A DNA stretch of 64,000 nt from Candidatus Woesearchaeota archaeon (GTDB lineage Archaea; Nanobdellota; Nanobdellia; Pacearchaeales; GW2011-AR1): assembly GCA_964358765.1 (NCBI GenBank), contig CAYHPN010000001.1:27182-91181 (forward strand), in the 5' to 3' direction. The position numbers were made by a program, and so were the translations under genes. Below, one piece after another: positions 26,273 through 56,856 of this stretch. The notes under the pieces are model-generated. The model ran no database searches, was not told where the DNA came from, and saw nothing but the letters and a program-made list of their open reading frames with translations. The first letter of the stretch is position 1; every line of letters begins with the position of its first letter.

Positions 26273-27784
26273 TTATGAATTTTCTTTCATTCTTTTGATT
26301 ATATCTGCAAATGCTGGCCTTGTAATTAAGATGCCTACGCTTATACCTATTATAGTGGTAAACGCAAATCCCCTCAGCATACCGGCTCCTGCCCAGAATA
26401 AAGGCACCATAGCGGCTACAATGGTGAAAAATGCACCCATAATGATAAATAATGCTCTCTTTACTTTTTCTTTTACACTTGATGAACCCTCTGACTCTGA
26501 CTCATCAATTATAACGATTTGGTCGTTTACCCCTGTACCCATTCCAGCAATAATTCCAGCTATTGAAGGAGCGTCTAGATTCCATTTTAACAATGCTGCA
26601 ATTCCAATTGTGATAAATGCCTCTGAGAACATAGTCAAAATTACTGCTAAAGTGATTTTAATTTTTCTATATTTTACAAATAAAACAAGAGAAACTATTA
26701 AGAAAACTACAAGAGCTAAAATCATTATACTTCTTCTGAATTCTTTTCCTAAAGAAGGTGAAATTGTATCTAATTTTACAATCTCTACTTCGTAAGGAAG
26801 AGAACCTGTAAGTAGAATTGTCTGTAATTTGTTCATATTAGCTTTTGTATCTTTTAGAGCTTCTGCTTGCGTTATTCCGGAACCGGAACCTTGTATGGAA
26901 ATTTCTGTTGTTTCCTGTCCTCTTAAACCGCTGCTAATCAATAAAGAATCCATTTCTTGATCATCTACATAGAGATATAATTTTTCAGAGAGATATTTTC
27001 CTGTTTGGTCAAGAGTCAGTTCTCTTGTAATATCTGCGTGTCTCTTTGCTGCGACATCTCTTAAATATACAGCAAAATCAAAATTACAGGAATATCCTCC
27101 TTCTGAAGGAAAGCAACTTCTTATTCCAGAGCAACGAGCACTTCTACAAATATCGCTGATATCTTTTTCCTGCCCCCCTACAAAAACTGTCTTATTTCCT
27201 ATCTTTGCTTCAAATTTTCCTTGCTTTCCAACTATTTCCTTTAAATCGGATGGTGAAGCACCAGCAATTTCTATTAACATAAAATTATTCCCGCTTAAAT
27301 CCTTAACAGTACGTACATTAATATCGGTTAATCCGAATGCATTAAGCCTTTGAGAAGTGATTGCAACTAAATCTGCTGCTTCAACATCAGTTAGAGTTTT
27401 ATTTGTTGGTTTTACTAATGCTCTTGCTCCTCCACTGAGATCTAAACCAGTTTTAACTTTTGTTTTAGGAATATCTGAGACAGTTATGGAAGAGAGGTTC
27501 TGATCTAAATAAACAAAAGTTCCTTTATTAGTTACTATGCTTATTCTAGAATCGTTTTTTTTATTAAAGTTAGATGCTACGATAGAAAATTCTTCAAGTG
27601 AGCTTATTTTTTGGGAATTTATTTCTTGTAGTTTCATTCCTGGTCTTAAACCGGTAAGAAAAGCAGAAGAATTTTTTTCCACACTTGTTACAATAATTCC
27701 TTTCTGAAATGTTGGAGAGATCATTAATAAAGCTAGTAATAAAGAAGCTATTAAAATCCAGACTCTAAAAGTTATTTTTATCAT
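26273..27784 (-). CDS. secD: Protein-export membrane protein SecD
   Basis: It has an N-terminal anchor, a GLDLSGGARALV motif, a large extracytoplasmic domain and a C-terminal 5-6 TM bundle. It lies immediately downstream of secF, which is the archaeal order. Confidence 0.8.
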   Translation of the reverse strand: MIKITFRVWILIASLLLALLMISPTFQKGIIVTSVEKNSSAFLTGLRPGMKLQEINSQKISSLEEFSIVASNFNKKNDSRISIVTNKGTFVYLDQNLSSITVSDIPKTKVKTGLDLSGGARALVKPTNKTLTDVEAADLVAITSQRLNAFGLTDINVRTVKDLSGNNFMLIEIAGASPSDLKEIVGKQGKFEAKIGNKTVFVGGQEKDISDICRSARCSGIRSCFPSEGGYSCNFDFAVYLRDVAAKRHADITRELTLDQTGKYLSEKLYLYVDDQEMDSLLISSGLRGQETTEISIQGSGSGITQAEALKDTKANMNKLQTILLTGSLPYEVEIVKLDTISPSLGKEFRRSIMILALVVFLIVSLVLFVKYRKIKITLAVILTMFSEAFITIGIAALLKWNLDAPSIAGIIAGMGTGVNDQIVIIDESESEGSSSVKEKVKRALFIIMGAFFTIVAAMVPLFWAGAGMLRGFAFTTIIGISVGILITRPAFADIIKRMKENS

Positions 27785-27785
27785 T

Positions 27786-28679
27786 TTATTTTATCCTCTT
27801 TACATCGGCATACCATTTAATTAGAGAAGCGTTAGTTAGCCAAGTATTTATCATATCTGCAAATAAACCTATCGATAAAATAAGAAATATCTGTCTAAAT
27901 GAATCTGGTAGACCTGTGACAATAAAGAAAGCTGGAAGAACAGCAGCTAAGCCTGTAAAAGTCATAAAAATTCCTGTCTTAAAAGAGCCGTATATTCTTT
28001 GGTTGACTGAACCTTCCTTCTTTTTTAATACTCTTGTGGTAAGTAAAATGTCTGTGTCTACTGAATAACCTATAAGCATTAAGAACGCTGCTATTCCAGC
28101 TGAAGAGAGTTTAATACCTAAGAAATCTACTACTGCTATCGAAACTACGATATCTGCAAATGCTGCAAATATTACTGCTACACTTGGAACAAATGTTCTA
28201 AACAAAGCAAAAATTACTATAGACATTAAAATGAAAGAAATTATGATTGCAGTAATCAATTGTTTATAAAAATTCTCGCCTAAGGAAGAACCGCTGAATT
28301 CTATATTTGAGTTATCTTGAGTTAATTTTTTGCCAGTAATACTTTCAATTTCTTTCTTTAAATCTTCAGGTTGTGCAGATGAATCAATAATTAAAGCAAT
28401 ATGCTTTCCAGAAGAAATATCTGTTATTGTGCGTATTGAAACATCTCCAAATTTCTGTTTTAATGCTGTTTCTAAATTTTGGACATTAGTATCAAAATTC
28501 AAAGTTATAGTTGTTCCTCCCGATAAACTTGAATCTTTAAAAATAAAATCTCCGTTTTTGGAATAAAAAGAAGCAAGATAAATAAATGATAAAATTAATA
28601 GAATTACTGGAGGCAGAAGCATGATTTTATAATACTTGTCATACCATTGTTTTTTGTGGTGTTCTGTAGTGCTTTCCAT
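27786..28679 (-). CDS. secF: Protein-export membrane protein SecF
   Basis: SLSGGTTITLNF matches the SecF GGT motif, and LMLIGYSVDTDILLTTRV matches the GYSxxDxIVxxxR motif. It has six TM helices. Confidence 0.8.
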   Translation of the reverse strand: MESTTEHHKKQWYDKYYKIMLLPPVILLILSFIYLASFYSKNGDFIFKDSSLSGGTTITLNFDTNVQNLETALKQKFGDVSIRTITDISSGKHIALIIDSSAQPEDLKKEIESITGKKLTQDNSNIEFSGSSLGENFYKQLITAIIISFILMSIVIFALFRTFVPSVAVIFAAFADIVVSIAVVDFLGIKLSSAGIAAFLMLIGYSVDTDILLTTRVLKKKEGSVNQRIYGSFKTGIFMTFTGLAAVLPAFFIVTGLPDSFRQIFLILSIGLFADMINTWLTNASLIKWYADVKRIK

Positions 28680-29361: not shown

Positions 29362-29432
29362 ATGCGCCGTACGAGAATCGAACTCGTGCTCGCTGGTTGG
29401 AAACCAGAAGTTCTACCATTAAACTAACAGCG
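29362..29432 (-). tRNA. tRNA-Gly (anticodon UCC)
   Basis: The minus-strand read is GCGCTGT TA GTTT AATGGTA GAAC T TCTGG TTTCCAA CCAGC GAGC ACGAG TTCGATT CTCGT ACGGCGC A. The cloverleaf folds with a 7-bp acceptor stem (one G-U pair). The anticodon loop is TT-TCC-AA, the discriminator is A73, and no CCA is encoded. Confidence 0.8.
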
Positions 29433-29586
29433 CTATGTAATGCCCTCGGGCAGAGTGTTTACGCACATAGAGTAATTTATTCGAAAGTTAATTTCTCATA
29501 AATTCTTATATTGGACGAATTCTTTTCGTACAAAATAACTCTCATCCCAATGGAAATTATTCTCATGATAATTTACATTATATAGA
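29433..29586 (-). repeat. Repeat unit A, about 155 nt, directly upstream of tRNA-Gly and homologous to unit B at 30748-30962 in inverted orientation
   Basis: Read on the minus strand it aligns by eye with unit B. The shared segments are atataRtgtaaattat-N7-ataatttccattgg, agttattttgt, aataagaattta, ataaattact and a GC hairpin (tgcccgagggca versus tgccctgaaagggca) followed by tta. Confidence 0.6.
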
Positions 29587-29638
29587 AACTAGTAATTCTA
29601 TTGGGTTTTAAACTTTATCATTCACATAGCTCATAATG

Positions 29639-29643
29639 AAAAA
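29639..29643 (-). terminator. T5 tract immediately 3' of tRNA-Arg
   Basis: Five T residues on the minus strand directly follow the discriminator base. Confidence 0.4.
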
Positions 29644-29720
29644 CGCCTATGGTAGGATTTGAACCTACGACTCCCACCTTAGGAGGGTGGTACTCTTAAT
29701 CCGGGCTGAGTTACACAGGC
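29644..29720 (-). tRNA. tRNA-Arg (anticodon CCU)
   Basis: The minus-strand read is GCCTGTG TA ACTC AGCCCGGATTAA GAGT A CCACC CTCCTAA GGTGG GAGTC GTAGG TTCAAAT CCTAC CATAGGC G. It is 77 nt with a full cloverleaf and no encoded CCA. Confidence 0.8.
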
Positions 29721-29816
29721 ATGTTTAAATTTAAATGATTAAATTGTTTTAAAGCTTATTGGAAGTTAAACTGTACAAAATATTTTATTGAAAAGATAAA
29801 ATCTAAATTTAATAGG

Positions 29817-29849: not shown

Positions 29850-30695
29850 GTGATAAAAATTACAGAAAATATAGGAGAATTAAAAAAAGAGATAGACAAA
29901 CTAAATAGGGATATTGCAATTGACGAGATACTGATTATAGATCTTCCTTTTATAGATGGCCAAAAAGATTTTACTGTAATAAATATCCCCTCCTATAATG
30001 CGGAAACTAACAATAACTTAATTTTTGTTTGCGGAGAAAAAGTTTTAGTTTTTACGCCTGTAAGAACCAGAAAACTTGAAGAAAAATTTGAAAAATTGTT
30101 AAATAAAAAGAATGGAGAGAGTACTGTTTCTATATTTATGCTACTTAAATCAATTTTGAAAAATTATTCTGTTGAATTTCTTAGGATCAGAGAAATTATG
30201 AATAACCTTGAATTGGATCCTGTTCTTGATTCTATTGAAGATGCAGCCAGGCATTTAAGAAAATTAACTGATAGAATGGAAGCACTTATCCAAATCATTA
30301 TAGAGCTAAAAGAAGAAGACATAAGATGTTTTGATGTCTCGCTTGTAAATTTTGAATATGATCTTTTAAGTACAGAATCCAGATACTGGCTGGAGAGATG
30401 CCGCAGCCATACTTATAGAATCGCTTCTTTAAGGACAAAATCGGAAATGCGATCTAATAGGGAACTAAATGATACTATGAAGAAACTTACTGTAATCATG
30501 ACATTTCTTACAATTGCAAGCATTGTTGTAAATGTTCCAGGTACAGTTGGAGCTATATTTGGAATTCCGGCGCTGTCAAATGCTTATTTTGAGTCTCATA
30601 CAACTTTATTAATCATCACTTTGATTGTAACTACGTGTCTATCAATATTATTGGGCTATATTTATTGGAAATCGCTTAATTTGAAACAGAGATAG
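29850..30695 (+). CDS. CorA-like divalent-cation transporter (divergent, no canonical GMN)
   Basis: A soluble N-terminal domain is followed by two C-terminal TM helices. The inter-helix motif reads VGAIFGIPAL where CorA has YGMNF, and the preceding LTVIMTFLTIASIVV resembles CorA TM1. Confidence 0.4.
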   Translation: MIKITENIGELKKEIDKLNRDIAIDEILIIDLPFIDGQKDFTVINIPSYNAETNNNLIFVCGEKVLVFTPVRTRKLEEKFEKLLNKKNGESTVSIFMLLKSILKNYSVEFLRIREIMNNLELDPVLDSIEDAARHLRKLTDRMEALIQIIIELKEEDIRCFDVSLVNFEYDLLSTESRYWLERCRSHTYRIASLRTKSEMRSNRELNDTMKKLTVIMTFLTIASIVVNVPGTVGAIFGIPALSNAYFESHTTLLIITLIVTTCLSILLGYIYWKSLNLKQR

Positions 30696-30747
30696 ATTTA
30701 ATGCCTGCGGACATTTCCATGCTCACGCATGTGGTGTAGTTTATTTC

Positions 30748-30962
30748 AATATAGTGTAAATTATAACTAAAATAATTTCCATTGGAAATATAGTTATTTT
30801 GTTCAAAGTAAATTTGCCCAAAATAAGAATTTAGGCAACTACTAGCTTTTGACTATCGACAATTCTGTTTTAAATTTGTCAGAATTGACGTATTAGAGAA
30901 TTTAACAGAATTCTCTATAAATTACTAAATCTCCTCTGCACCCTGCCCTGAAAGGGCATTAT
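30748..30962 (+). repeat. Repeat unit B, about 215 nt, an inverted partner of unit A with a roughly 75-nt internal insertion
   Basis: See unit A. It also carries a 10-nt inverted pair, agttattttg (30792-30801) and caaaataact (30969-30978). Confidence 0.6.
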
Positions 30963-31005
30963 TTTAAGCAAAATAACTCTCTTACATAAACTTGTTAAAT
31001 TGAAT

Positions 31006-31524
31006 TTAACAAGCCAACCTAAGCTCCAATCCTTTTTTTGCCCTATGCATTCTGGACTTAATGTCTGAATGAGATAAATTACAATCCTTTGAAATTACTT
31101 TATAATTTTGTCCGAGAAAATAATATCTTATAACTATTTCGCTTTGTTTTTTTGGCAACTCTGCTATAAAACGAATTAAATCCGAATAATCTGGTTTTTC
31201 ATCTATCTCGGTTTCTGATGATGGATATTTTATTAAAACTTGAGAATGTGGGTTATTATTTGATTCAACTAAATGAGAGAAAGAAATTTCATTCCTTCTT
31301 TTTATCTTTCTTTTATCGCTTAGAAAGTGATTTTTTGCGATTGTATACAGCCATGTTCTAAGTGATGCTCTCTTTTGATCAAAGCTTTCCTGCGAGTTTA
31401 AGGCCTTTATTATAGTTTCTTGAGCAATGTCCTGAGCATCAGAATATTGTGTAAATCGTCTTACAAAATTAAATAATCCTTCATAATGAGAAAGCAGTGT
31501 TTTTTCAAAAGATTCTGCAACCAT
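31006..31524 (-). CDS. ECF-type sigma-70 family RNA polymerase sigma factor (bacterial type)
   Basis: Region 2 reads DAQDIAQETIIKALNSQESFDQKRASLRTWLYTIAKNHFLSDKRK. Region 4.2 reads LPKKQSEIVIRYYFLGQNYKVISKDCNLSHSDIKSRMHRAKKGLELRL. Both fit the ECF consensus closely. Confidence 0.75.
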   Translation of the reverse strand: MVAESFEKTLLSHYEGLFNFVRRFTQYSDAQDIAQETIIKALNSQESFDQKRASLRTWLYTIAKNHFLSDKRKIKRRNEISFSHLVESNNNPHSQVLIKYPSSETEIDEKPDYSDLIRFIAELPKKQSEIVIRYYFLGQNYKVISKDCNLSHSDIKSRMHRAKKGLELRLAC

Positions 31525-31724
31525 GTCCAGAAAAATTAAATGGCCTTTATATCTTTTTGTATAACACGTATCAACTCAGCTTTGTGAAGCTTCGTTGGCA
31601 AAATTGCTATAAATTTTAAGTAAATTAAAATTTATAGAAGATAAATGTAAAATCTGCTTCATAAAGGTAAGCAATTACTATAACACAAAACCCTGCATTA
31701 AAATTTTAAAGTAGATTAATAATA

Positions 31725-31806
31725 TGCAGAGGAGAGGATTCGAACCTCTGAACCACTAAGGACTGGATCTTGAGTCCAGCGCGTTTGACCGCTTCGCTAC
31801 CTCTGC
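31725..31806 (-). tRNA. tRNA-Leu (anticodon CAA)
   Basis: The minus-strand read is GCAGAGG TA GCGAAGCGGTCAAACGC G CTGGA CTCAAGA TCCAG TCCTTAGTGGTTC AGAGG TTCGAAT CCTCT CCTCTGC A. It is a class II tRNA with a long variable arm, A73 and no CCA. Confidence 0.8.
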
Positions 31807-31827
31807 ACACTTTATAAAGAAAGAGTG

Positions 31828-32439: not shown

Positions 32440-33084
32440 TTATTGATTTGTGTTGGAAATATTTTTTAATTTCTTTAAAATTATATTTAGAATTTCTTCA
32501 GAAGAGATTTTCGTTGTATCTATGACAAGGTCTGCTATTTTTTCCTGATCTAACAAATTAAAATTATAAATTTTATTTAACTCCAACTTTTCAATTTCCT
32601 CTCTTTTACTTAAAAATTCTTTTGCTTTTTCTAAAGAAATATCATCTCTTTGTTTAGTTCTTATTGCCCTAATATCAAAATCGGCTTTGAACCATATTTT
32701 TAGTGTTGCATTTTTTACAATAAATATTGCAATCTTTCCGTCTATTACTATATTGCCTTTTTTACCTAAATCTTCTTGCAACTTGTCAATTATATTATTT
32801 AATTTCTTACTTTTTCCAAATTCTGTGTTCCATAAATTGTATGCGGCTGTAGAATCATCTTTTGCTTTTAATTGAGGAATTAATAAATTTCTTTGGAGAC
32901 ATAATTTATTAAACTCCTTGAAATAATATTGTTCTTTGTATGTTCCTTTAGATATATCTTTAAACAATCTTCCCGCACCAAAATAATCCAAATTTAATTT
33001 ATGAGCTAGAAGTTTTGATATTGTTGAGCTCCCTGAACCAGGTAAACCTGAAATTACGATCGTTAGTTTTTCCATTATTTGCAA
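32440..33084 (-). CDS. P-loop nucleotide kinase, archaeal-type (d)CMP kinase-like
   Basis: The P-loop and flank read ISGLPGSGSSTISKLLAHKLNLDYFGAGRLFK, resembling archaeal Cmk (GxPGSGxTT...SxGxxFR). The start is probably MEKLTIV at 33075. Confidence 0.5.
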   Translation of the reverse strand: MQIMEKLTIVISGLPGSGSSTISKLLAHKLNLDYFGAGRLFKDISKGTYKEQYYFKEFNKLCLQRNLLIPQLKAKDDSTAAYNLWNTEFGKSKKLNNIIDKLQEDLGKKGNIVIDGKIAIFIVKNATLKIWFKADFDIRAIRTKQRDDISLEKAKEFLSKREEIEKLELNKIYNFNLLDQEKIADLVIDTTKISSEEILNIILKKLKNISNTNQ

Positions 33085-36121: not shown

Positions 36122-36470
36122 AAAGAAATATAAATACCCTTATTTTTAATTTTATCTATTGCTAAATATTTTAAGAATTTTAAAAATTAAGTATGTTTTA
36201 ATTTTAGCTAATATTAATAACTTAGAAATTGTCTGTTTAAATCAATAGGTCCAAATATTCTTGAACTATCTCTTTCATCAACTAAAGTATTAATAACATA
36301 GTAATAACCTGGTTTCTTTTCAACTTTTGATTTAACTAATTCCTCAATATGTGCGTTAATCCCTTGATTTTCTCTCATATAAAAAGCATGTTAAATCATT
36401 ATTTTAAATATTTCCATACTTAACTTACAGGAGCCAAAAGCTACTTAATGATCAGAAATTTAATATTATA

Positions 36471-36725
36471 ATGAAAATGAAGTTAACCAAAAAAGAAACG
36501 CAAGACAAAATTGAGATGTTCTTCAAAAAAGAGGAATTTACTCCGCAAGAAATGAAGAAAATAAAAAAATTGGCAATGAAATTTAATATAAAACTTGGAG
36601 CATATAAGAAAAATTATTGTAAAAAATGCCATAATAAATTAGAAGGGAAGATAAAGGTAAATAAAACATTTAAGACCGTTTCTTGTTCTTCCTGTGGATT
36701 TCTCAATAAAATAAAATTAAGATGA
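36471..36725 (+). CDS. RNase P protein component 4 (Rpp21/Rpr2-like zinc ribbon), short form
   Basis: YCKKCHNKLEGKIKVNKTFKTVSCSSCGF matches the Rpp21 pattern (R)YCKKCxxxLxxG...V...C..CG. It is 84 aa. Confidence 0.55.
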   Translation: MKMKLTKKETQDKIEMFFKKEEFTPQEMKKIKKLAMKFNIKLGAYKKNYCKKCHNKLEGKIKVNKTFKTVSCSSCGFLNKIKLR

Positions 36726-37748: not shown

Positions 37749-37776
37749 TTAAATGGAGAGAATATTAGATATTTAA

Positions 37777-37813
37777 ATATAATGTAAATTATAACAAAAA
37801 TAATTTCCATTGG
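37777..37813. promoter_or_regulatory. 37-nt imperfect palindrome (copy C), a candidate operator between divergent genes
   Basis: The sequence is atataatgtaaattat-aacaaaa-ataatttccattgg. The arms tgtaaattat and ataatttcca are 9/10 reverse-complementary with a 7-nt spacer. Near-identical cores lie at 30749-30785 and, inverted, at 29547-29583. Confidence 0.45.
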
Positions 37814-37871
37814 GGAAATAAAATTTAAAAATATTTATAAACACTGGATTATAAAAGTAATCTAAAATACA

Positions 37872-52368: not shown

Positions 52369-55300
52369 ATGAAAAGGGAAAAAAATATATTAAAAATAGA
52401 AGCAATCATACAGATTGTTTTATTAATAACTGCAATGTTTGCATTTTCTTATTTTATTGAAAGAATTTTTGATTTAAGTTCTGGAATTGGAATTGTGAGT
52501 GCGCAAGGAACAAGCGGAACACAAACAGCTGGGCTTACAAATGAAGAATTGACAACGTTAAGGCAAGGACTTGCAAATTATCCTGGGACAAATCAGGAAC
52601 TTAACAATACTTTAATTGATTTAGAAAGAAATGGATATTTATCAAGAAGCGATTTTACGAATGCCGAAATTGTTTCAAGAGCAATTAATGATTCATACAA
52701 CGATTATAATTCTGATATAGATTCTGGAAATACTGCAAATACTTGGCACAATCCATTTTCAACTTTAATACAAAGTTTTATTGGAAATGCGGAGATTAGC
52801 GGAGGAGACATACAACTAGGTTTATATGATTCAACTGGAGGGCTCAAAATGTGCGCTCAAACAAAAAACGGAAGATTATGCCAACCTTTTGCATCAAACA
52901 TATGCAATGATAATTGCAAAGAAAATTGCATTGATGTCGAACTGACAACTGATGTTCTTCCAGATGATAATGAATGTAAATTAGGATTATGTTATGATAG
53001 TGATGAAGGAAGTTGTGAGAGCAGGTCCCCTAAAACTGCCTGTGTTGAAAATAATGGGGACTGGTATAAAACAGGAGATGCTACAGGAGAAGGTCTTTGC
53101 AGACGAGGATGCTGTATAATAAATGATCAGGCATTATTTTTAACTAACAAACAATGTGAAAAAAGAAGTGCAAGTTTAGGTTTTGAACTAGGAGGAGATA
53201 ATGCAATATTTAATTCTGATATTAATGAGGAACCTGCTTGTATTGCCGAGGCGTATAACAGAAGAAACGCAAATTTAGACGGAGCATGCACTTTCCCACA
53301 CGAAGATGGAGGAAAACTAGATTGCAAATTCGTAAAGGGAGATGAGTGCTCAGACATTGGAGGGATATTTAATGCAGGAAAATTATGCTCAAATTCTGAA
53401 TTAAATACTAGATGTACAAAATCAAATTCAACAAATTGTGTAGAGGGACTAGATGAGATATACTGGATTGATTCATGTGGAAATAGAGAAAATATTTATG
53501 AGGGAAGCGATCAAGATAAAAAAGATTTAAGTTGGTTTAACGGACTAGTAAAAGCGAAAAATGAAAGCTGTATTCTTTCTTCTGGAGGAAATAATATTGC
53601 AAATCAAGGAACATGCGGAAACTGTGATAGATTTAGAGGAAGTATATGTAGTAATAAAACCATGGAGCCGATTGTGCAAAAATTAAATGATGATGATCAA
53701 AATTTTGTTTGTTTAGACATGGGATGTTATGATGATAATGGAAAAAGAATAAGAGAACATGGAGAGAGCTGGTGTGCGTATCAGAGTAAAATTGGAATAA
53801 ATGGATTGCTTGGTGAACAAAATAATAATATGGTTGTTACCAGTTTAATGAATATAGCAATCCCACAAATAGGGGGAGGAATACTTGGAGGAGACAGAGC
53901 AGTTGACACTCCTGGGAGCAGCCATTTTAGAGCAACATGTCTAAATGGAAAAATCCAAACTAGTGCTTGCGAAACTGGAAGGAGAGAAATTTGTGTTGAA
54001 TCAAGATCTGAAATATCGGGAAGTGATAAAGAATTTTCTCAGGCTGTTTGCAGAAAAAATAGAGCAATGGAATGCTTCCAATATAATCCAGGAAAGACAG
54101 AGAGTCAAGCAATAGGTTTAGCAGGACCACAGAAAGCATGGAAAATATTAAGGACGAAATTGCAATTAACTTGTGGTTTAGATCCAGATTGTTTTGTACT
54201 TGACGTAAATTTAGCTTCTGGCAAAGATGATACTTTTAAATTTTCTTATTGTGCGCCTAGATATAAATTAGGATTTGATTTAGAAAATTCAGAAAGTGGA
54301 AAGCAATTCTGTTCGCAGGCATCTCAAAAATGCACTGCAGTATTTGTAAAGGGCATAGGAGGATGGGAATGCAAGGCAAATTGTGATTGTGTAGAAGGAA
54401 GCGATCCATCAAGCGCTAAACCTTCACAAAAATTCGTAAAAGAAATGGGGAGATTCTGCTCAAGTTTAGGAGATTGCGGTTCTCAGGTCAGTTACACTGG
54501 AAAATTTCCTGGAGGAAAAGGATATTCTGTAACCATGGGCAAAGATCCACTTAAGCAATTACTACAATTTGGAAGTTCATTTAGTTTTTCAGATATGCTT
54601 GGAATGAATTCAATGTTGACAATTGGCGATGACATTCCTCGAAGAGGAGAATATATTCCTGCAAATGATACAAAACCTGGAGGGATGCTAGAGGGAGGAT
54701 TTAATAATTTCTTAAAAGATCAGGGAATACTTGGAATTTTTTCAATGATAGATTCACAATTAAATAATTTAATGAGTCAAGGAGGTGGGGGAAATTATGG
54801 CGTGCCTGATATTTCTGGAGTTGGTTCCCAGCAGTCGTCTTTGATTGCTCCTGGATTAGTTGCAGGAGGTGCAGGTGGAGCAATGCTGGGATATGGTTAT
54901 TTGACAAGTGGATTAACAGCTGAAACAACAACAATTGTAACGGGAACAATTGTAGAATCTGGTGTGGCTGGAGAAACTGCAGCTACTGTAGCCGTTACTG
55001 AAACTACTGCGACTTCTCTTGCAGGCTTTGGAGGAGCATTATTTGGCGCGGGAATTGGGGCAGCGACTGTTGGATTTTTAATAAAAATGCTTGGAATTGG
55101 CCCTGGACTGAGTCCAGGAGTTGCTTATGCAATGATGGGAACAGGAGCAATAGGCGGAGCAGTTGTGGGATATCAAGCATTTACTGGGGGTAGCGCAGCA
55201 ATTGCAGCAAATCCTATTGGAGTTATTTTATTTGTTGCAGTAATTGCGATATTAATAATATTCAAATTTATGGGAGTTGGAGAAGTGGAAGAAGTGGAAG

Positions 55301-56856
55301 TAAACTTTGAATGCAAACAATGGGAACCTCCTAGGAATGTGGATGCTAGTGATTGCAGATCGTGCGGAAATGATGATTTAAGTGATGGACAAAATAGTTT
55401 CCCATGTAATAAATATTCCTGCCAGGCTCTTGGGCAAGATTGCCAGTTTATAGAAGGAAGTGAGATACCTGGGAAGGGAGGAATATGCGAATATGCTCCG
55501 CAAAGTGATACTCAAGCGCCATTAATAACTGGACTTAGAGAAGAAATATTATCTGAGAATTTTGAATATGATAATGTTGACTTAAATGGCGAGAGAATAT
55601 TTGAAGTAAGAAAAACTGGCGAAGAGTGCTTGGATCAATTTGAAAGCGTTACTTTTGGATTTAATACAAATGAATATGCAACTAAATGCGCAATAAGTGG
55701 AAGTCCTAGAGAAAACACAGATATGATGGTTGCACTAAGTTCTGGACTAAATCATAGCTATACATTTAATTCAAGAAATTTAGATGCTTTAGGAGTTGTT
55801 GGACTAAAAGAAGAAGAAAGAAATGACTTTCAACTCTATTTAGTATGCCAGGATATAAGAGGAAATAATAATATTGCAAATGAATATATTGTAAAGATGT
55901 GCGTCATACCTAGAGATTTGACTCCAACTTTAGTTTTGAATGGTGATGAGTTAAATGATTTATTAATTGCAAATAATGCCAGAAATAAAACTGTGTCAAT
56001 TAATTTGAATGAACCTAGTGAGTGCAGATGGGATTATGCAGAGAAAACTTTTGACGAAATGGAAAATAATATGCAGTGCAATAGTAATATATTGCAATGC
56101 AGTACACTAATTCCTTTTGAAGAAGATGAAAAACAAATATGCATAAAATGCAGAGATCATCCAGAGTGGCAGGGAACTGAAAGAGAAAACGAAAGAAATG
56201 AAAATACTCAGTGTGTTGATGCATCCTTAATAAGAACAAATGCGTTAGAAATTACATCAATAACTCCAAATAATGAAACAATAAAGAAAGGAGCTAGCGA
56301 TTCTTCAATTGAGATTGTTGTAAACACTGCAGGAGGAGCCAATTATGGAGAAGCAGATTGCTATTATGATTTGGATAACTCTGGAAGGATATTATTTATG
56401 GAAACAGGAAATAGAGAAGAGCATAAACAAAATATTGGAGCAGGAACTTCAAGACTAGATGAAGGAAACCATAATTTGAAAGTATCATGCCAAGATAACG
56501 TAGGTAATAAAGCAGAAATTGAAACTACATTTAAATTAGATATTGATATGGTTGCTCCAAAAGTAGCAAGAATTTATGCCCAAGGCAATAGCTTAAATTT
56601 GATTGTAGACGAATCTGCTAATTGCGCATTTGTAAATAGTAAGCCAACGAATTCTAGTATATGCGAGTTTGATGTTAAAAAATGCTCTGAGATTAATGGA
56701 TGTGGAGAAATGAGTATTGATTTTACAAATGAAAATTATACAAAGTTTAGCGCCCCTTTTGATATTGGCAAAACATATTATATAAGATGCGTTGATGAGT
56801 ATGGAAACCAGCCTAGCCAATGCAATGCTAAAGTTATCAAAGGAATTTTTGTTTAA
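52369..56856 (+). CDS. Giant (1495 aa) Cys-rich surface/membrane protein. It has an N-terminal anchor, a Cys-rich ectodomain, an internal Gly/Ala/Thr-rich 4-TM bundle and a C-terminal region with three CxDxxGN beta-sandwich-like repeats.
   Basis: The N-terminal anchor is IEAIIQIVLLITAMFAFSYFI. The ectodomain carries dozens of Cys residues (aa ~165-700). The hydrophobic Gly-rich block at aa ~800-965 (nt ~54780-55270) has four helix-length segments. The C-terminal repeats end in YLVCQDIRGNNN, LKVSCQDNVGNKA and YIRCVDEYGNQP, which is HYR/Ig-like. Confidence 0.7.
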   Translation: MKREKNILKIEAIIQIVLLITAMFAFSYFIERIFDLSSGIGIVSAQGTSGTQTAGLTNEELTTLRQGLANYPGTNQELNNTLIDLERNGYLSRSDFTNAEIVSRAINDSYNDYNSDIDSGNTANTWHNPFSTLIQSFIGNAEISGGDIQLGLYDSTGGLKMCAQTKNGRLCQPFASNICNDNCKENCIDVELTTDVLPDDNECKLGLCYDSDEGSCESRSPKTACVENNGDWYKTGDATGEGLCRRGCCIINDQALFLTNKQCEKRSASLGFELGGDNAIFNSDINEEPACIAEAYNRRNANLDGACTFPHEDGGKLDCKFVKGDECSDIGGIFNAGKLCSNSELNTRCTKSNSTNCVEGLDEIYWIDSCGNRENIYEGSDQDKKDLSWFNGLVKAKNESCILSSGGNNIANQGTCGNCDRFRGSICSNKTMEPIVQKLNDDDQNFVCLDMGCYDDNGKRIREHGESWCAYQSKIGINGLLGEQNNNMVVTSLMNIAIPQIGGGILGGDRAVDTPGSSHFRATCLNGKIQTSACETGRREICVESRSEISGSDKEFSQAVCRKNRAMECFQYNPGKTESQAIGLAGPQKAWKILRTKLQLTCGLDPDCFVLDVNLASGKDDTFKFSYCAPRYKLGFDLENSESGKQFCSQASQKCTAVFVKGIGGWECKANCDCVEGSDPSSAKPSQKFVKEMGRFCSSLGDCGSQVSYTGKFPGGKGYSVTMGKDPLKQLLQFGSSFSFSDMLGMNSMLTIGDDIPRRGEYIPANDTKPGGMLEGGFNNFLKDQGILGIFSMIDSQLNNLMSQGGGGNYGVPDISGVGSQQSSLIAPGLVAGGAGGAMLGYGYLTSGLTAETTTIVTGTIVESGVAGETAATVAVTETTATSLAGFGGALFGAGIGAATVGFLIKMLGIGPGLSPGVAYAMMGTGAIGGAVVGYQAFTGGSAAIAANPIGVILFVAVIAILIIFKFMGVGEVEEVEVNFECKQWEPPRNVDASDCRSCGNDDLSDGQNSFPCNKYSCQALGQDCQFIEGSEIPGKGGICEYAPQSDTQAPLITGLREEILSENFEYDNVDLNGERIFEVRKTGEECLDQFESVTFGFNTNEYATKCAISGSPRENTDMMVALSSGLNHSYTFNSRNLDALGVVGLKEEERNDFQLYLVCQDIRGNNNIANEYIVKMCVIPRDLTPTLVLNGDELNDLLIANNARNKTVSINLNEPSECRWDYAEKTFDEMENNMQCNSNILQCSTLIPFEEDEKQICIKCRDHPEWQGTERENERNENTQCVDASLIRTNALEITSITPNNETIKKGASDSSIEIVVNTAGGANYGEADCYYDLDNSGRILFMETGNREEHKQNIGAGTSRLDEGNHNLKVSCQDNVGNKAEIETTFKLDIDMVAPKVARIYAQGNSLNLIVDESANCAFVNSKPTNSSICEFDVKKCSEINGCGEMSIDFTNENYTKFSAPFDIGKTYYIRCVDEYGNQPSQCNAKVIKGIFV

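Follow-up and report, generated by a model that had tools for sequence, protein, structure and literature searches.

Transcription initiation in archaea involves TBP, TFB, and TFE, with sigma factors instead being a hallmark of initiation in bacteria. Sigma factor genes of the extracytoplasmic function (ECF) type reportedly were noted by Rinke and colleagues in 2013 in single-cell genomes of DPANN archaea. Considered here is one such gene, which encodes a protein of 172 amino acids (aa) and lies within a 64,000-nucleotide stretch of DNA (hereafter 'the window', meaning the whole of that stretch; positions 27,182 to 91,181 of contig CAYHPN010000001.1, GenBank assembly GCA_964358765.1) from a Candidatus Woesearchaeota archaeon. 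It is near certain that this gene is an intact member of group 4, i.e., the ECF group, of the sigma-70 family and that it is native to an archaeal chromosome. More generally, sigma-70 genes occur among DPANN archaea, are commonest in Woesearchaeota, have been verified by means of co-encoded markers, and come with no anti-sigma factors (Castelle et al. 2021, Front Microbiol, PMC8204110).

The closest described system is DPANN family fam00359 of that report. As described there, the likeness being one of description, its sigma-70 genes too reside in genuine DPANN genomes that carry TBP and TFB, and no anti-sigma factor was found for them. What goes beyond that report is the placement of the window gene, i.e., within a cluster of tRNA-Leu, tRNA-Arg, and tRNA-Gly genes for which the corresponding site in a congener (a genome of the same genus) is empty. 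As sigma-70 genes in DPANN archaea have already been published (PMC8204110), the window gene is not a discovery but rather a well-characterised example. New here are this tRNA-cluster address with its empty congener site, the match between two clades of these genes and two slots within the cluster, and figures for rate and selection.

The bacterial ECF sigma factors SigL (6dv9), SigH (5zx2), SigW (5wuq), and sigmaE (1or7, 6jbq) are similar to the window protein in size and in their sigma2-linker-sigma4 architecture. Shared with bacterial ECFs as well are a D-x-x-Q-E motif in region 2.2, a Trp equivalent to W68 of SigL, and a T-V/I-K-S-R recognition helix. The window protein differs from bacterial ECFs in several respects, however: None of the named bacterial proteins found exceeds 37% identity to it, its scores fall short of every NCBIfam subfamily and equivalog cut-off, it has no anti-sigma partner, and it resides in a genome lacking a bacterial core RNA polymerase (RNAP). 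Should the mechanism proposed below hold, then archaeal TFE-alpha, eukaryotic TFIIE-alpha, and Spt5/NusG would be functional analogues, docking on the same clamp and aiding DNA opening, though none of these is related to the window protein in sequence or in fold.

An Intact ECF-Type Sigma Factor Gene

The open reading frame (ORF) starts with ATG, and the motifs that had been quoted for it in the original prediction are present. Both domains are well above their Pfam cut-offs, with Sigma70_r2 (PF04542) scoring 55.5 bits versus 24 (E 5e-15, aa 12-76) and Sigma70_r4_2 (PF08281) scoring 42.3 bits versus 25.7 (E 6e-11, aa 116-164). The ECF superfamily model of NCBIfam, TIGR02937 (sigma70-ECF), is passed as well, at 82.0 bits versus a cut-off of 42.9. 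No NCBIfam subfamily or equivalog cut-off is reached by this protein: Among the named ECF subfamilies tried (SigM, SigW, SigZ, the Bacteroides type, etc.) the best is SigM_subfam, at 81.6 bits versus 147.95. Nor are there Pfam matches to sigma regions 1 or 3, that is, the protein consists of sigma2, linker, and sigma4 only, without regions 1.1, 1.2, and 3.

By sequence, the closest solved relative is Mycobacterium tuberculosis SigL (E 2.5e-11), and M. tuberculosis SigH, Bacillus subtilis SigW, and Escherichia coli sigmaE are among the nearest as well. An AlphaFold2 (AF2) model, built upon a 44-sequence input, has a mean predicted local distance difference test (pLDDT) score of 87.5, and a Foldseek search of the PDB with that model returns ECF sigma factors at ranks 1 to 30 without exception. 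As the domain, superfamily, and fold scores are all far above chance, the observation of ECF regions 2 and 4.2 with which the original prediction began is confirmed.

That no anti-sigma gene is adjacent likewise holds. Particularly, no co-directional ORF of at least 20 aa follows the sigma gene, none occupies the 310-bp spacer found there, which is a dispersed repeat, and no anti-sigma domains were found among the neighbouring proteins.

An Archaeal Host

The assembly comprises 1.75 Mb in 69 contigs, with approximately 31% GC, 87% completeness, and 1.6% contamination. This genome possesses exactly one Sigma70_r2 gene and therefore no RpoD. Encoded by it are TBP and TFB along with a single second-largest RNAP subunit (one Rpb2_6 match), which is archaeal RpoB (contig C43, 381-3641), and downstream of RpoB are RpoA'/A'', a NusA-like gene of archaeal type, and a DNA polymerase of family B. 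Searching this 87% complete genome by tblastn using both RNAP subunits yielded no second RpoB-like or RpoA'-like gene, nor was a cognate bacterial core RNAP (beta, beta-prime) found in it.

Encoded on the same 155-kb contig as sigma are the ribosomal proteins L19e, L32e, and S4e, along with PCNA, all of them markers without bacterial counterparts. The adjoining (d)CMP kinase scores 102.8 against a cut-off of 102.1 for TIGR02173 (cyt_kin_arch). For SecD and SecF the best NCBIfam models are PRK08343 and PRK08578 (preprotein translocase), here read as archaeal-type models, with both proteins under the equivalog cut-offs. The small genome, together with its relatives, points to a DPANN-type host, and the archaeon is one from groundwater. 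An apparently archaeal chromosome, as this had been called, is thereby borne out, and the suggestion that the organism might not be archaeal after all is refuted: TBP, TFB, a single archaeal RNAP, archaeal ribosomal proteins, and PCNA are all present, and RpoD is not.

The largest RNAP subunit of this archaeon seemingly is a single ORF of 1143 aa (L005:3903-7334, contig C43), the first part of which matches RpoA' and aa 805-1124 of which match RpoA''. Archaea mostly have rpoA1 and rpoA2 as two separate genes.

Native Residence

In overall GC (0.308), in GC at third codon positions (GC3; 0.214), and in synonymous-codon score, the sigma gene falls within the 39th to 49th percentile of the long ORFs of its genome, and the GC profile is flat over the region. 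Four assemblies, made separately for one groundwater well (fractions of 0.1 and 0.2 µm), each contain a short contig encoding an identical protein. The longest of these contigs, L016, agrees with the window at 100% identity over a stretch that takes in the final 57 codons of the (d)CMP kinase gene (cmk) and runs through a 186-aa gene and tRNA-Leu to past the sigma stop. Because GC and codon usage are typical, and because the link to cmk is reproduced by independent assemblies, the sigma gene is neither a contaminant nor a recent arrival. A chimeric contig join, which had been raised as a concern, is unlikely given the same native composition and the same 100% reproduction in L016 of the cmk-to-sigma stretch.

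The independent short contigs end or diverge inside of the 310-bp downstream spacer. That is, the downstream join crosses a repeat, and it is the upstream join to cmk alone which is independently confirmed; archaeal residence does not depend upon the downstream join. The repeat family of this spacer, which resembles a miniature inverted-repeat transposable element (MITE), recurs on numerous contigs of this genome, among them the one that bears TBP and TFB.

Some further observations concern this family. Its partial copies number more than 15 and are scattered over many contigs, its members in the window are at 30696-31005, 29434-29642, and 37770-37820, and its core is a 37-nt palindrome. A 32-nt piece of the repeat (about 30966-30996) is found at many contig ends. 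Contig L019 (ERZ1292640, 0.2 µm sample) has the identical sigma gene followed by mismatches within the repeat (window about 30700-30870), and then by different sequence, which reflects either a rearrangement at the level of strains or a jump of the assembly to a different copy of the repeat.

Relatives, Prevalence, and Origin

A word-indexed homologue search found only the protein itself, and an exhaustive HMMER search was used instead. Over 1.8 billion representative proteins, this search recovered four close relatives (35-46% identity), below which there is a flat plateau of generic ECF matches (25-37%). A single-protein scan of named genomes, with the window's own genome left out, gave matches to bacteria only, from many phyla and at no more than 37% identity. 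Within the genus, protein search found a homologue in 8 of 20 genomes, at 25-35% identity, and profile search added a ninth, G009.

Over the phylum, Sigma70_r2 genes of any type are found in 167 of 401 genomes and in 144 of 280 genera. An archaeal ECF-like profile matches in 54 of those 401 genomes, from 50 genera, with the ECF-like frames, at 60 places in those 54 genomes, being 157-255 aa in length and free of internal stops. This split in prevalence, i.e., ECF-like in 13% of genomes versus any Sigma70_r2 in 42%, also is new here. Many of the Sigma70_r2 proteins of the phylum are long, and those sampled are fully RpoD-like, with regions 1.1, 1.2, 2, 3, and 4. The ECF-like profile does not recover the RpoD-like proteins sampled, so that the sigma homologues of this phylum are of two distinct kinds.

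The RpoD-like proteins seen, all of the same class, are 297-877 aa in length (L131-L138, from G337, G149, G235, G052, G201, and G191), and in G235 (L133) three such genes occur in tandem. ECF-like genes too can be found as tandem pairs, as in G012 of the same genus (L009:125-1257) and in G035 of another family of the order (L013:897-1989).

A tree was built from 29 archaeal and 66 bacterial ECF-type proteins. Twenty-five of the archaeal rows fall within one cluster (SH-aLRT 94), and a tree constraining all 29 to a single clade has a likelihood above that of the free search and is not rejected (approximately unbiased test, p-AU 0.92). The window gene together with that of G010 and three metagenomic proteins makes up a clade A (support 99), with the genes of G008, G002, G012, G020, and G015 making up a clade B (support 93). 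Most likely the archaeal ECF-like clade descends from one old transfer from bacteria. A phylogeny thus recovers an archaeal clade, though not a donor lineage, none being nameable with the bacterial matches as flat and as spread over phyla as they are. Of the explanations initially offered, an acquired gene that now serves as a regulator fits best, with the amendment that the acquisition is old and clade-wide rather than a private event.

Residues Retained

The window protein possesses D32, Q35, E36, W58, K156, S157, R158, and R161. Among the 29 archaeal homologues, which were gathered without regard to the residues later scored, D32 is retained in 27, Q35 in 25, W58 in 27 (with an aromatic residue in all 29), and R72 in 28, while K156, S157, and R158 are retained in 23, 23, and 22, respectively. 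K156 and R158 are invariant in a 14-row archaeal alignment. The bacterial sample is biased by peptide patterns such as DAQDIAQE, making bacterial frequencies at those columns uninformative.

D32, Q35, and E36 align with the D-x-x-Q-E motif of region 2.2. Their counterparts in sigma-70 are D403, Q406, and E407, and it is chiefly this motif that determines how sigma-70 binds the clamp helices of beta-prime. The sigma2 domain of sigmaE contacts those helices by way of a conserved polar surface (PMC6648896). W58 aligns, in the alignment to 6dv9_F, with Trp68 of SigL, which stacks on the flipped '-11 master nucleotide' (PMC6372665), and the 12-residue L3 loop preceding W58 has its length preserved (cf. 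SigL, PMC6372665). Residues of the kinds used for core binding, for the -10 element, and for the -35 element are all kept in the window protein, as judged from these alignments. L116, I120, F136, L166, and L170 are hydrophobic like the positions with which sigmaE4 contacts the beta flap-tip helix, this being a lead only, mapped by way of the E. coli sequence.

Rate and Selection

Between the window genome and G010, SecD is 72% identical and sigma 35%; for the other congeners the respective ranges are 54-65% and 25-32%. For the same window and G010 pair, nonsynonymous divergence (dN) is 0.66 for sigma versus 0.117 for an adjacent CorA-like gene (for which omega, the ratio of dN to synonymous divergence, dS, is 0.07). 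The sole unsaturated pair, G008 and G002, gives a sigma omega of 0.40 at a dS of 0.44. The sigma gene, that is, evolves several times faster than its neighbours and does so under selection that is purifying but relaxed or shifting.

Proposed Role and Its Alternatives

What might such a protein do in an archaeon? The role that we favour, in which our confidence is evenly balanced, is that of a promoter-selective transcription factor acting within the archaeon on the archaeal RNAP, by way of the clamp coiled-coil of RpoA'. Transcription would start at an archaeal promoter or else reach the gene as read-through of the tRNA gene. The helix-turn-helix (HTH) of sigma4 would bind a duplex DNA site. 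Sigma2 still has its polar region-2.2 surface, which bacterial sigma factors use for docking on the clamp helices of beta-prime, with the homologous coiled-coil of RpoA' as its likeliest partner here, and the aromatic residue of sigma2 would capture a flipped non-template base. Positioned on the clamp, where it would sit alongside TFE and Spt5 or compete with them, sigma could then bias initiation at a few promoters. Control might be by expression level, as there is no anti-sigma gene, or by some partner, for which the CorA-like neighbour is a weak candidate. Action on the archaeal RNAP is favoured because it is the RNAP-docking surface and the base-capturing residue that are kept, and not the sigma4 HTH alone.

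A more specific version of this role would be hybrid initiation: Region 2.2 would sit on the coiled-coil of the clamp, a flipped non-template base would be captured by W58 together with the L3 loop, and the factor would in this way direct, or help with, the opening of promoters private to it, alongside TBP/TFB and in competition with TFE/Spt5. This we view as doubtful. If true, however, then a bacterial sigma factor would have been grafted functionally onto an archaeal polymerase, and then been kept and diversified across a whole archaeal phylum. A sigma family that is kept, diversified, and selected within a large archaeal phylum would mean either that the universally conserved clamp coiled-coil can serve sigma on a non-bacterial polymerase or that the sigma fold has been re-employed. 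The locus moreover offers material for tests: a short, stand-alone protein, a defined set of native polymerase genes, a congener with an empty site, and fast-evolving orthologues suited to covariation analysis.

A number of considerations weigh against action on the archaeal RNAP. Bacterial sigma4 depends on the beta flap-tip helix, an element that archaeal RpoB may lack. The conserved residues may be retained for folding only. At 0.4, omega is on the high side, and dN is 5.6 times as great as for the neighbouring gene, figures that relaxed constraint would fit as well. Of 20 genomes sampled in the genus, moreover, 11 lack the gene, which is therefore dispensable. Genome-wide, no enriched candidate target motif was found. 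Lastly, long archaeal branches could group artificially, with long-branch attraction and AT-driven composition being caveats to the tree.

Alternatively, the protein could be an RNAP-independent HTH repressor or activator, one binding operators via sigma4 while making no contact with polymerase. Bacterial-type HTH regulators dominate gene regulation in archaea, the sigma4 recognition helix is conserved, there is no bacterial core RNAP for the protein to serve, and fast evolution would fit a shifting operator specificity. For a pure sigma4 binder, however, an exposed D32 and Q35 along with a base-stacking W58 would be superfluous, and these are kept in a deep, fast-evolving clade, just as both domains and the length class of the linker are kept in all homologues. 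We consider this regulator to be unlikely, though less so than the alternatives that follow.

It is improbable that the gene is a relic, that is, a transferred gene drifting without current function. The fairly high omega and elevated dN, the many congeners lacking the gene, and the lack of a cognate RNAP are what drift would lead one to expect, but frames are intact in all homologues (the 60 places noted above), omega is well under 1, codon usage is native, and the hallmark residues have survived a very long divergence.

Slightly less probable still is that the gene belongs to a mobile element or virus as its cargo, sitting in an islet integrated at a tRNA hot spot and serving the element rather than the host. 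The slot between tRNA genes in which it lies indeed is variable and is beside MITE-like repeats, G004 and G010 have LAGLIDADG-like ORFs in this cluster, the gene is distributed patchily over the genus, and sigma-like genes have been reported from DPANN viruses and prophages (PMC12647753). No integrase was seen, however, nor a PHROG match for any neighbour or a duplicated tRNA end beside sigma, and the composition is fully native. The same cluster position, furthermore, is held in congeners with SecD only 54-72% identical.

Export, so as to act on the bacterial RNAP of a partner, prey, or neighbour, was the second of the original explanations and is very improbable. DPANN archaea do live attached to other cells, and all of the bacterial-type interaction surfaces look intact. 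The sigma protein, though, has neither a signal peptide nor a hydrophobic segment, no secretion or injection genes were seen beside its gene, and known DPANN hosts are archaea (PMC8204110).

An artefact of assembly or binning, joining a bacterial fragment to an archaeal contig, is scarcely credible, for while short-read contigs do break in the repeat just 3' of sigma, and L019 diverges there, the upstream join to cmk and tRNA-Leu is 100% identical in an independent assembly, composition is native, congeners hold homologues at the same tRNA cluster, and G010 likewise pairs sigma with the same CorA-like gene.

The tRNA Cluster and Its Slots

The features of the locus are collected in Table 1. 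Over the genus, the backbone order is cmk, tRNA-Leu(CAA), tRNA-Arg(CCT), tRNA-Gly(TCC), secF, and then secD, and both the tRNAs and the secF-secD pair that had been remarked upon near to the gene are indeed present.

Table 1. Coordinates, within the window, of the sigma gene, its domains, and the features surrounding it.
Feature	Position	Strand	Basis
ECF-type sigma-70 family gene, 172 aa	31006..31524	-	ORF list, Pfam r2 and r4_2, TIGR02937, PDB ECF sigmas
Sigma2 domain, aa 6-88 (D32/Q35/E36 of region 2.2; W58)	31261..31509	-	AF2 helices, pLDDT >88; alignment to 6dv9_F
Sigma2/sigma4 linker, aa 89-113, 25 residues, predicted disordered	31186..31260	-	pLDDT 49-63, no secondary structure (AF2)
Sigma4 domain, aa 114-171, HTH recognition helix D-I-K156-S157-R158-M-H-R161	31012..31185	-	Pfam Sigma70_r4_2; confident AF2 helices
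Candidate archaeal promoter, purine-rich stretch plus ATATAAA, centre ~25 nt before ATG	31544..31560	-	read from sequence
Upstream element TTTATA-NN-AATTTTGCCAA, common to upstream region of the G010 orthologue	31595..31613	-	upstream comparison
tRNA-Leu(CAA), co-oriented, 199 nt upstream of sigma ATG; one slot border	31724..31807	-	ARAGORN, Rfam, synteny
(d)CMP kinase (cmk), archaeal-type, backbone gene beside cluster; syntenic in G004	32440..33084	-	TIGR02173
3' spacer, dispersed MITE-like repeat; core 30742-30792; inverted repeat with 29499-29588	30696..31005	.	repeat search, genome-wide copies
CorA-like membrane protein, 281 aa, two C-terminal transmembrane helices, convergent with sigma	29850..30695	+	full-length CorA match weak, E 0.03
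tRNA-Arg(CCT), other border of the slot holding sigma	29643..29721	-	synteny
tRNA-Gly(TCC), third member of conserved cluster	29363..29433	-	synteny
SecD and SecF, backbone genes on opposite side of cluster	26273..28679	-	PRK08343/PRK08578 best matches; synteny

Seven of the eight congeners that have sigma have it within this cluster. In G004, which has no sigma gene, the Leu-Arg spacer is empty (305 bp), and there is a LAGLIDADG-like ORF between tRNA-Arg and tRNA-Gly. In the window genome, the Leu-Arg slot contains sigma, the repeat, and the CorA-like gene. The same slot in G010 contains an S9 peptidase gene, a CorA-like gene (80-81% identical), sigma (35% identical), and a LAGLIDADG-like ORF, with the CorA-like gene adjoining sigma as it does in the window. 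Most congeners, unlike the window genome, have sigma just downstream of tRNA-Arg: In G008, G002, G005, and G020 it is found in the Arg-Gly slot, co-oriented with tRNA-Arg, and in G012 there are two tandem copies immediately before tRNA-Gly. The two clades of the tree, A and B, match these two slots. The tRNA-Arg DNA proved too unspecific to serve as a synteny anchor.

As to expression, the candidate promoter with ATATAAA, a second TATA-like box, would yield a leaderless mRNA. The element farther upstream is common to both clade-A genes, those of the window and G010, and so supports their orthology. As a possible regulon signal, AATTTTGCCAA was set aside, as its four genome copies, versus approximately 2.6 expected, amount to no enrichment. 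In G008 and G002 the sigma ATG is only 6 nt past the 3' end of tRNA-Arg (L008:1410-1417; L010), a gap too short to accommodate a separate sigma promoter, and one implying that sigma would there be co-transcribed with tRNA-Arg as a tRNA-mRNA transcript.

Two neighbours were considered as partners of sigma, and neither was retained as such. The CorA-like gene is found in only three of 41 relatives, one of which (G004) lacks sigma, and it is no better than a weak lead. Genes for a CsrA of bacterial type adjoin, and are convergent with, sigma in G008 and G002 (L008:1976-2209, minus strand; L010:1151-1450, plus strand; Pfam CsrA 87-89 bits, cut-off 27), but tblastn finds no CsrA gene in the window genome.

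The LAGLIDADG-like ORFs of the cluster slots, which are of the homing-endonuclease type, are at L026:6774-7622 and L027:3627-4637 (G004 and G010), with weak homologues on contigs C20 and C29 of the window genome.

For two other ORFs of the window, at 52369-56856 (plus strand, 1495 aa) and at 60603-62201 (minus strand, 532 aa), Pfam offers no match at an E of 1e-5. The gene that had been called Rpp21 is an ORF of 98 aa at 36429-36722 which does encode a zinc ribbon, with its identity as Rpp21 weakly supported (Rpr2 E 0.075, below cut-off). In G004 this zinc-ribbon ORF is kept, at 48% identity, beside a gene for an AI-2E transporter.

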